Shown here piece after piece: positions 41,946 to 44,745 of a DNA stretch of 64,000 nt (positions are counted from its first letter, which is position 1; every line of letters begins with the position of its first letter). The notes under the pieces were generated by a model. That model was not told the DNA's origin. It did not search any database and saw nothing but the letters and a program-made list of their open reading frames with translations. The position numbers and the translations under genes are program-made. The DNA comes from Actinomycetota bacterium (lineage in GTDB: Bacteria > Actinomycetota > Actinomycetes > Actinomycetales > Microbacteriaceae). Location: NCBI GenBank assembly GCA_046046195.1, contig JBJOKH010000010.1, positions 2,837 to 66,836 of the forward strand, in the 5' to 3' direction.

Positions 41946-44549
41946 TTAGACTCTTGGCTTCTCACGCATCTCGAAGGTTTGAATGATGTCTTCTAGTTCA
42001 AGTTCGTTGAAGCCACCAAGACCGATACCACACTCGAAGTCAGTCTTGACTTCATTGGCGTCGTCCTTGAATCGCTTCAGTGACTCAACTTTTAGGTTGT
42101 CAGCGATGATGTTGCCGCCGCGAAGGACGCGAGCCAAAGAGTTTCGCTTGATTGAACCAGAGCGAACGATCGAACCGGCGATGGTGCCAACCTTCGAGGA
42201 CTTGAATAGTTCACGAACCTCGGCTGTACCAAGCTCGAATTCTTCGTACTCAGGCTTGAGCATTCCCTTGAGGGCTTTTTCAATGTCCTCAAGAGCCGAG
42301 TAGATGACGGAGTAGAAGCGAATGTCCACGCCTTCTCTGTCGGCGCGATCCTTGGCCTTGTTATCCGGCTTGACGTTGAATCCAATAATGATGGCGTTGT
42401 CAACGGTGGCAAGGTTAACGTCGGACTCGGTGACAGCACCAACGCCTCGGTGAATGATTCGTAGCTGGACGGAGTCGTCCACCTCGATTTTGAGAAGCGA
42501 GTCTTCCAGAGCTTCAACCGCACCGGATACGTCACCCTTGATGACCAAATTGAGGGATTCAACCTTGCCATCTTCAAGGGCCTTGGTGAAGTCTTCAAGA
42601 CTTACGCGCTTTCTGGTCTTAGCAAGAAGAGCGTTTCTGTCGGCAGCTTCACGTTTTTCGGCGATCTGTCTTGCCTGGCGCTCGTCGTCGGTGACAACAA
42701 ACGTGTCGCCCGCGCGTGGAACACTCTGGAGTCCAAGAACCTGAACCGGTCTCGAAGGAGTTGCGGCCTCGACAGGCTCACCATCTTCGTTGAACATCGC
42801 ACGAACGCGACCGTGAGCACTTCCAGCAACAATCGAGTCACCAACGTTCAAGGTACCGGACTGAATCAGAACGGTTGCAACCGCTCCACGACCCTTGTCC
42901 AGGTTGGCTTCAATAGCCACACCGCGAGCGTCCTTGTTAGGGTTGGCACGCATGTCTAGAGCAGCATCGGCGGTAAGAAGCACTGCATCGAGCAGCTGGG
43001 TGATTCCCTGACCCTTCAGAGCAGAAACCGGCACGAACATAACGTCACCACCGTATTCTTCGGCGACCAAGTTGAATTCGGTTAGCTGTTGCTTGACCTT
43101 GTCAGGGTTTGCACCTTCCTTATCAACCTTGTTGATGGCAACCACAATCGGTACACCAGCTGACTGAGCGTGGTTTAACGCTTCCACAGTCTGAGGCATA
43201 ACACCGTCATCGGCTGCGACAACCAAGATGGCGATGTCAGTGACCTGTGCACCACGAGCACGCATGGCTGTAAACGCCTCGTGACCCGGGGTGTCGATGA
43301 AAGTGATTGCTCGGTCTTGACCTTCGTGCGTGGTGTGAACCTGGTACGCACCGATGTGCTGGGTGATACCACCGGCTTCCCCGGCTTGAACGTTCGCGTT
43401 TCGAATCGAGTCCAAAAGCGCAGTCTTACCGTGATCAACGTGACCCATGACCGTGACAACAGGTGGTCTTGCTACAAGGTCTGCCTCGTCATCGTCGTAG
43501 TCGGCTGAAATGTCCAAACCGAATCCTTCGAATAGCTCTCGCTCTTCGTCCTCAGGGGAAACAACTTCGATCTTGTAACCCAGTTCAGCTCCAAGAATCT
43601 GGAAGGTGTCTTCGTCTAGCGATGCGGTAGCGGTTGCCATCTGACCAAGTGCAAATAGCACAGTGATCAGCTGACCAGCGTTGGCATCGATCTTGTCTGC
43701 GAAATCTTGAATTGAAGCTCCGCGGCGTAGACGAATAACAGTTGTTCCGTCACCGCGTGGCACAACTGCGCCACCAAGGCTTGGAACACTTCTTTGTTCG
43801 AATTCTTCTCTCTTGGCGCGCTTAGACTTTCGAGCCTTGCTCTGTCCTCTTGCTCCGCCTTTACCGAATGCACCAGCGGTACCACCGCCAACACCTCTTC
43901 CACGTCCACCGGCAGGTCCTCTGCCTGGGAATCCTCCGGCTGGTGGTGCGCCTCCAAATCCCGGCTTCGCTCCGCCGAAACCTGGACGCGATCCTGAACC
44001 GCCAGCTGGTCTTGCTCCAGGTCTTGGAGCTCCGCCTTCTGGTCTTGATCCAGGGCGTGGTGCGCCTGGTCTTGGAGTTCCAGGTCTTGCCATGCCTTGT
44101 GCTGCGTTGAATGGATTATTTCCAGGTCTTGCCATCGGACGAGGAATTCCCATTCCCTGACTTGAAGCAAATGGGTTATTTCCAGGTCTTGGAACTCCAG
44201 GAACAGAGGATGCAGCAGGAGGAGCTTTTGGTGCATCGGTAATTGAACTTGGAGCAAGTCTTGAAGTTTTCTTTTTTGGCTCTGCAGGTTCTGAAGGCTC
44301 AGCAGTTTCCGATACAACTTCGGCGGCGGCAGCAGTTTTCTTAGTAGCGGCCTTGGGCTTAGCTACCTTCTTTACTTCATCGGCAGGCTTTGCGTCAGGG
44401 AAGGCAGCGCGTAGTTTCTTAGCGATCGGGGGTGCAATTGTTGAAGACCCGCTCTTGACGTATTCGCCGAGCTCTTCAAGTTTGGCCAGAGCCACTTTGG
44501 TATCAATACCAAGTTCTTTGGCTACGTCGTAAACACGTGGTAGCGCCAC
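41946..44549 (-). CDS. infB: Translation initiation factor IF-2
   Basis: [21 protein letters not shown]; Pro/Gly-rich N-terminal linker with RPGNNPF repeats. Confidence 0.99.
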
Positions 44550-44589
44550 TTACTTCTCCTGTCTGGGCCTTCCCAAACAGGGCAGGCCG

Positions 44590-44638
44590 TTAAAGCTGTT
44601 GGGTACTCATTTCGAGATACTCATTTGATTTCCAACAT
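44590..44638 (-). other. Chain of three AUGA-overlapping mini-ORFs (MLEIK, MSISK, MSTQQL) in the infB leader
   Basis: ATG TTG GAA ATC AAA TGA (44638-44621); ATG AGT ATC TCG AAA TGA (44624-44607); ATG AGT ACC CAA CAG CTT TAA (44610-44590). Confidence 0.65.
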
Positions 44639-44745
44639 CTTTTCTGCCTACTTCTTATTGATAAAGGGTTCAAACCCAATTGACCATTTGGTCCGTGGCA
44701 ACTAAACCACCAAAGGCCAGTCTAGGCCCAAACCCCCGAAACGCT

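Follow-up and report, generated by a model that had tools for sequence, protein, structure and literature searches.

What governs access to the start of infB, the gene for translation initiation factor IF2, when a chain of very short reading frames leads directly up to it? The question is raised by the minus strand of the 64,000-nucleotide stretch of Microbacteriaceae DNA analysed here (the window), in which infB is preceded by three upstream open reading frames (uORF1 to uORF3) and then by a short segment that can fold in two ways. To our knowledge, the setting of IF2 levels is poorly understood outside Escherichia coli, and we know of no such leader in E. coli. A sequence-only reading of the window had described two competing hairpins in this segment, A and B, of which B buries the Shine-Dalgarno (SD) sequence, and had taken them for the output stage of a translational attenuator driven by the uORF chain. 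The observation is confirmed here and the interpretation is supported in part. Judged from comparative sequence evidence, the leader is a genuine cis-regulatory element, conserved and apparently not described before, the existence of which is well supported. As to its function, the stretch after uORF3 is tentatively read, at a little under an even chance, as the output module of a conserved translational infB leader, in which termination on uORF3 would repress initiation on infB and possibly give IF2 feedback.

Two mutually exclusive hairpins before infB

On the minus strand, the mRNA following the UAA of uORF3 (44592-44590) reads C-GGCCUGCCCUGUUUGGGAAGGCCCAGACAGGAGAAGUAA-GUG. This sequence, the pairings of both hairpins and the burial of the AGG of the SD by hairpin B are exactly as the sequence-only reading had given them. 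The elements concerned are the following.

41946-44549, minus strand: infB (IF2), 867 amino acids, with a GUG start at 44549-44547 and an N-terminus that aligns with the IF2 starts of relatives
44547-44658, minus strand: whole conserved extent of the infB leader, matched by covariance model R1 with 71.8 bits, E 3e-19 (L001:1648-1759)
44556-44560, minus strand: Shine-Dalgarno AGGAG of infB, 6 nt 5' of the GUG
44584-44588, minus strand: outer 5' arm of hairpin A, GGCCU, starting 1 nt 3' of the uORF3 stop and corresponding to the class-wide GGUCCG arm of R1
44566-44570, minus strand: outer 3' arm of hairpin A, AGGCC, covarying with its partner; 44566-44567 also belong to B
44572-44582, minus strand: apical part of hairpin A, with CCC at 44582-44580, loop UGUUU and GGG at 44574-44572; 44581-44572 doubles as the 5' arm of B, CCUGUUUGGG
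44558-44567, minus strand: 3' arm of hairpin B, CCCAGACAGG, in which the SD bases A44560, G44559 and G44558 are paired

The outer helix of hairpin A consists of the pairs G44588-C44566, G44587-C44567, C44586-G44568, C44585-G44569 and U44584-A44570, and is separated from the CCC/GGG stem by a G44583/A44571 mismatch. Hairpin B pairs CCUGUUUGGG (44581-44572) with CCCAGACAGG (44567-44558) in 10 bp, including one U-G pair (U44576-G44563), around an AAGG loop. Nucleotides 44581-44572 and 44567-44566 are common to both hairpins. The AGGAG of the SD is invariant in the alignments of related leaders (A2 and A3). The mutual exclusivity proposed for the window extends to its relatives, as in 46/46 leaders of the window's own order the 3' arm of B has 1-2 nt in common with the 3' arm of A, and the 5' arm of B lies inside the loop of A. 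Because these arms share nucleotides, A and B cannot coexist, not even as a pseudoknot; an H-type pseudoknot of the two was ruled out by the spacer between the 3' arms of A and B, which is -1 or -2 nt in all 46.

ViennaRNA assigns -15.0 kcal/mol to hairpin A and -17.5 kcal/mol to hairpin B, and the minimum free energy structure of the 66-nt stretch is hairpin B. Single-sequence folding of the stretch is only mildly unusual (z -2.1, with 6/200 shuffles folding equally well). The case that the hairpins exceed chance therefore comes from conservation, as compensatory changes keep both helices paired in relatives.

Conservation of the leader and its micro-ORF relay

So that the sample would not depend on any motif, IF2 N-termini were located in 120 genomes of the order and in 100 of the class, and the DNA upstream of each was collected as its leader. 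The covariance model of the whole leader, R1, matches 99/99 distinct leaders, once each and always ending at the infB start. It also matches 20/20 extra leaders from families of the order outside the first sample and 12/12 named loci (11 Streptomyces, one Sporichthyaceae metagenome-assembled genome and one unclassified Actinomycetota metagenome-assembled genome among them), which identify the class as Actinomycetes. Among 150 phylum-wide genomes, searched under stricter filters by which weak forms could be missed, R1 matches at infB occur in members of this class only; the leader was not found in ~137 genomes of other classes. One seeming match outside the class (L117) was rejected, as it lies within an unrelated coding region and not at infB.

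The outer helix of hairpin A reads GGUCCG/CGGACC in most leaders and GGCCU/AGGCC in the window. Across the alignment 91.9% of cells are paired, double changes are found in 6/6 pairs, and the covariation score is 0.333 against 0.204 in shuffles (reached by 0/500) and at most 0.096 with slid partners; in the 46 B-carrying leaders of the order alone it is 0.277 against 0.190. Helix A is recovered independently by RNAalifold, which returns no structure from a plain MAFFT alignment, in which the stems are misaligned; model-based alignments were used instead. The frequent G-U pairs in the helices indicate that the structure belongs to the mRNA strand. Hairpin A is separated from the last stop codon by 0-6 nt in all leaders (modes 1 and 4), and 12-20 nt (mode 14) lie between its end and the start codon.

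Hairpin B has a narrower distribution. At E<1e-4 its own covariance model, R2, matches 46/53 of the order's leaders; it also matches 15/20 additional ones, whereas in the 46 leaders from other orders it has no sense-strand match below E 0.01. In the order, 91.5% of cells are paired, three inner pairs show two-sided changes in 25 cells, and the covariation score is 0.151 against 0.074 in shuffles (0/500) and at most 0.055 with slid partners. Thus, both helices covary in the aligned leaders, the comparison that the sequence-only reading had proposed as a check. The 5' arm of B begins 6-14 nt after the last stop across the order, most often 8. Some members of other orders (L102, L106, L090 and L077) carry an SD-complementary stretch of their own within hairpin A (in L102, CUCCUUCG against CGAAGGAG), which suggests that the sequestering partner arose independently more than once.

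Directly upstream of the hairpins lies the chain of micro-ORFs, which in the window has three members and two AUGA stop-start junctions:

44590-44610, minus strand: uORF3, MSTQQL* (AUG AGU ACC CAA CAG CUU UAA), the final micro-ORF of the relay
44607-44624, minus strand: uORF2, MSISK*, with AUGA overlaps with both uORF1 and uORF3
44621-44638, minus strand: uORF1, MLEIK*, the remnant C-terminal tail of a deleted ylxR (in relatives ...EQAETMLAKNE*)

Across the class, 2-4 micro-ORFs (mostly three, typically MSAR*, MSTQR* and MSTxxx*) are chained by AUGA overlaps in 96/102 distinct leaders. Their peptides are 4-7 residues long and variable, with no evident stalling motif. Consecutive AUGA junctions are spaced by 11, 14 or 17 nt, and 140/150 spacings equal 2 mod 3; 53 leaders end the chain with UAA, 24 with UAG and 19 with UGA; and the final micro-ORF differs in length among leaders by whole codons. 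RNAalifold finds no conserved helix in the micro-ORF region. Given the frame-keeping spacing, the varied stop codons, the whole-codon length changes and the lack of a conserved helix, the repeated units appear to behave as reading frames and not as a fixed RNA motif. In many lineages, the stop codon of ylxR, which encodes a DUF448-type protein, itself stands on an AUGA junction (gaps of -4, -15, -18 and -29 nt; L061, L066-L068, L070, L073 and L076 are among these leaders), so that ribosomes leaving ylxR would enter the relay. Other lineages have the end of ylxR 30-250 nt upstream, with a conserved box, GGAAGCRGGUCGAG, ahead of the first micro-ORF.

The junctions show further regularities. In 87% of 173 junctions, AUGA is followed by a G (alignment A3; for example at 44607-44624) that is needed for neither the stop nor the start; an AUGAG would allow the anticodon loop of initiator tRNA to pair over a longer stretch. 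CGA is the codon preceding the internal UGA in 113/173 junctions. Several families depart from the common layout. In family f9 (L032, L033, L045 and L056), an insertion of 55-75 nt separates the micro-ORF chain from hairpin A, placing the last chained stop ~105-118 nt from the infB start. The leaders of family f6 (L027, L041 and L060) are divergent, with two frames only, the second of 11 codons, and without a B-type partner; the UGA of this second frame forms the first bases of the hairpin 5' arm (UGACCACGC...GCGUGGUCA). In family f58, which has a mycobacterial-type IF2 N-terminus, the leaders L094 and L116 are degenerate: their small frames are no longer AUGA-chained, a different hairpin (GAGGCG...CGCCUC) is present, and R1 recognises them weakly (E 3e-8 and 4.5e-6). 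Three further genomes of this family gave no R1 match under stricter filters.

The terminating ribosome and its possible effects

With a stop codon in its A site, a ribosome holds ~6 nt (unwound) to 9 nt (covered) of mRNA past that stop, by established footprint and helicase limits. Given this footprint and the stop-to-A distance of 0-6 nt, a terminating ribosome must occupy the 5' arm of A, as had been claimed for termination at 44590, while the 5' arm of B is at or beyond the ribosome edge. The accompanying claim, that such a ribosome shifts the equilibrium between the folds, is not borne out. In the window genome, the probability of B is ~1.0 and that of A ~0 without a mask, with a mask to stop+6 and with a mask to stop+9; a mask to stop+12, which is unrealistic, melts the SD-pairing base of B. 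One fold thus dominates regardless of masking, formally the outcome that the sequence-only reading had itself named as speaking against it, and any effect of the ribosome would have to be on opening energy or kinetics and not on populations.

On opening energy the masked folds do show an effect. Exposing the 6-nt SD window in this genome costs 4.1 kcal/mol unmasked, 11.1 kcal/mol with stop+6 masked and 7.6 kcal/mol with stop+9 masked. The cost rises under the mask because A forms while the SD is held open and repays part of the expense, and a ribosome on the stop forbids A; once the SD and start are occupied, the probability of A is 0.87-1.0. Across the window's own order (n=45), the median opening cost is 2.1 kcal/mol unmasked and 8.2 kcal/mol with stop+6 masked, with a shuffled median of 2.4 (stop+9); 41/45 leaders rise by >2 kcal/mol, and 31/45 have a value matched or exceeded by no more than 5% of their shuffles (stop+9). 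In the other orders (n=46), the corresponding medians are 0.6 and 1.5 kcal/mol, with a shuffled median of 2.1 (stop+9); 8/46 rise by >2 kcal/mol and 5/46 have ≤5% of shuffles reaching the real value (stop+9). L102 and L106 are among the few exceptions in other orders with a masking effect. In several members of the genus, A and B are within 1-2 kcal/mol of each other, the window's clade lying at the B-favouring end.

In the mechanism tentatively proposed from these energies and the conserved geometry, ribosomes would traverse the AUGA-joined relay, which in many lineages would be fed straight from the ylxR stop. Three RNA segments would then act in order, namely the 5' arm of A, a common middle and the SD-bearing 3' arm: pairing of segments 1 and 2 would give A with the SD free, and pairing of segments 2 and 3 would give B with the SD hidden. 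The predicted resting fold in this genome is B, and A would be adopted when a 30S subunit opens the SD, cutting the opening cost from ~11 to ~4 kcal/mol. A ribosome on the uORF3 stop would keep the 5' arm of A within the mRNA channel without reaching B, and a busy relay would lock the SD in B and lower de novo initiation at infB. If re-initiation needs IF2, the result would be negative feedback on IF2 synthesis. The two folds, their exclusivity and conservation, the geometry and the computed energies are results of the analysis; that the micro-ORFs are translated, that the effect is repressive and that it is linked to IF2 is what we infer.

As IF2 overexpression enhances re-initiation in E. 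coli, where IF3 lowers it (PMC2268962), a three-step relay could conceivably serve as a readout of IF2 activity and so complete a negative feedback circuit. A fuller version, which we regard as speculative and rather unlikely, would make the leader an IF2 gauge: the yields of three serial junctions would depend on IF2 and the availability of formylmethionyl-tRNA, the flux to the last stop would be steep in IF2 and, by occupation of the 5' arm of A, would set the locking of the SD in B, and the resulting cooperative autoregulation would be conserved across the Actinomycetes.

Several points weigh against repression by termination on uORF3, in addition to the dominance of B under every realistic mask. 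In most other orders the SD next to hairpin A is free, no dedicated sequestering partner is present, and the masked values are no higher than those of shuffles. As most orders lack B, A/B switching cannot be the class-wide function, and A and the relay must have some other role that is universal; what stands of the attenuator proposal is that the hairpins directly follow a conserved micro-ORF chain, and what does not is that they are its universal output, since B is order-specific while A is class-wide. Within B, the outer four base pairs (CCUG/CAGG) are invariant and uninformative, as the SD by itself could hold them constant, and only 3/10 pairs covary. Each of the two alignments was fitted to its own model, which favours the structures, although the slid-partner controls argue that such bias does not explain everything. 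The dwell of a ribosome at a stop codon is short. Finally, the supplements of a Mycobacterium tuberculosis ribosome-profiling paper make no mention of infB or Rv2839c.

Other explanations were weighed. B could be a constitutive SD mask that sets a low rate of IF2 translation, with no ribosome-gated switch, and A an ancestral class-wide hairpin with another role (such as stabilising the 5' end of a processed infB transcript, or signalling its processing) whose arms overlap B by chance. The unchanged dominance of B under all ribosome masks, the retention of A and the relay in most orders without B and the possibility that the SD sequence alone explains the invariant outer part of B would all follow. 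Against this stand the compensatory changes that keep A paired in the very 46 leaders with a B, the 1-2 nt overlap conserved in 46/46, the near-equal energies of A and B in several members of the genus, and the stop codon that stays 0-6 nt from A in all leaders despite its varying identity, and on these grounds a constitutive mask is considered unlikely. Chance complementarity in a GC-rich stretch beside a purine-rich SD would be consistent with the modest z score of -2.1 and the 6/200 equally stable shuffles; it is extremely improbable, as comparative data already contradict it, both helices being conserved and covarying across families and orders, and the masked SD opening cost lies above shuffled controls.

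The relay itself can be read in two further ways. infB could be its last member, with a ribosome ending at uORF3 melting A, and perhaps the base of B, and re-initiating on infB; the folded hairpin would bring the stop and the infB start to an effective distance of ~17 nt, and B would only block relay-independent initiation. Such positive coupling, or shunt, is judged unlikely, since a ribosome reaches ~6-9 nt past the stop and B begins beyond that in most leaders, since B is intact under the stop+6 and stop+9 masks, and since positive IF2 feedback would be a strange arrangement if more IF2 makes the relay more efficient. It would nevertheless agree with the freeing of the SD-pairing base of B by the stop+12 mask, with the position of the stop and the GUG on either side of the hairpin base in both folds (1+16 nt for A, 8+8 nt for B), with the feeding of the relay by ylxR, and with the state of other orders, in which A has no partner and the SD is free, 12-20 nt from the start, as suits a bridge; NUGA coupling is also common in M. 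tuberculosis (bioRxiv 10.1101/2022.06.01.494293). Alternatively, a trans-acting factor (IF2, a ribosomal protein and NusA are candidates) could bind the repeated CGAUGAGC units or hairpin A and choose between A and B, the small frames being incidental. This would account for conservation of the unit sequence beyond the needs of an ORF, including the 87% conserved G after AUGA, and for the lack of a conserved helix in the repeat region; it is made improbable by the 140/150 frame-preserving spacings, the use of all three stop codons at the last stop and the whole-codon variation in ORF lengths. YlxR is excluded as such a factor here, as its gene is missing from the window's genome.

Relation to known systems and the surrounding locus

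Upstream ORFs combined with alternative SD-hiding hairpins, and NUGA stop-start coupling, are kinds of control that are already known. In the attenuation of erm and cat genes, a short upstream ORF adjoins mutually exclusive stem-loops, the downstream stem hides the SD, and the position of the leader ribosome selects the fold. The infB leader is alike in that uORF3 ends 1 nt before A, directly upstream of the structure, and in that the helices are mutually exclusive and covarying, with one sequestering the SD. It departs from the four-segment logic of the erm type, having three segments only, with masking of the A 5' arm raising the SD opening cost; a leader ribosome would thus favour the sequestering fold, which is the opposite sign. 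A fourth segment was sought in an upstream box, GCGGGUC, which is complementary to the A 5' arm in the consensus, and no covariation was found (72.7% of cells paired versus 72.8% in shuffles). Furthermore, the ribosome would act at a stop codon, whereas erm relies on drug-induced stalling inside the peptide, and the input would be a relay of 2-4 AUGA-chained micro-ORFs, with infB as the regulated gene.

NUGA stop-start overlaps are abundant in M. tuberculosis (bioRxiv 10.1101/2022.06.01.494293; PMC11260477). As in this actinobacterial coupling, four-nucleotide overlaps in the infB leaders link ORFs without an SD of their own, and the ylxR stop is often on such a junction. The known cases, however, are single junctions between genes or between a uORF and a gene, while the infB leader has a conserved series between frames of 4-7 codons, ending at a structured switch. 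B also resembles SD-sequestering hairpins and RNA thermometers (ROSE, fourU) in being a simple stem that pairs the SD; it differs in having a conserved competitor, A, and a conserved upstream ORF relay, and nothing suggests temperature sensing. Translation factors are known to regulate themselves through the step that they catalyse, as with the AUU start codon of infC (IF3) and the UGA frameshift of prfB (RF2). If the IF2 link holds, the infB leader would likewise read a factor's activity on its own mRNA, by the different means of an RNA switch that senses the efficiency of a re-initiation relay.

Searched against Rfam 15, the window's own leader gave only noise (E up to 10; 13-17 bits against gathering scores of 44-120), six typical leaders gave nothing within the leader, and no description of it was found in the literature on infB leaders, uORFs and ylxR. 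Absent from both sources are the serial micro-ORF relay, its fixed position relative to a covarying hairpin before infB, and the order-specific sequestering partner. A single, sharply defined element precedes infB in every sampled member of the class, including Streptomyces, and takes a degenerate form in mycobacteria-like genomes; it would combine a serial re-initiation relay with a three-segment SD switch, both open to direct tests. If the proposed reading is true, it would represent a new way for the translation machinery to gauge its own initiation capacity, and high-GC bacteria would offer in it a natural case for the study of termination-reinitiation. Should the feedback idea prove wrong, the leader would still be a candidate, and a well-supported one, for a new curated family of RNAs or cis-regulatory elements.

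The gene order around the leader is altered in the window's clade. In most species of the genus, ylxR lies between nusA and infB, and the two are ~366 nt apart. In the window's clade (G000, G007, G009 and G010), ylxR has been deleted (region 44621-44745, minus strand), the distance from nusA, which ends with TAG at 44748-44746 on the minus strand, to infB is only 196 nt, and the last codons of ylxR survive as uORF1. The Pfam YlxR model has no match anywhere in the window's own genome, which is 81% complete. The last ~110 nt 5' of infB are conserved despite the loss of ylxR. No promoter-like site was found in the nusA-infB intergenic region, and an intrinsic terminator was rejected there, as the sole terminator-like match is on the opposite strand and spans the start codon. 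Directly 3' of the nusA stop lies a long imperfect hairpin (44664-44737, minus strand; -34.5 kcal/mol, z -2.6), which is a single copy in the genome and is not kept in sister genomes that likewise lack ylxR; it may be a deletion scar, a processing site or a terminator-like element.

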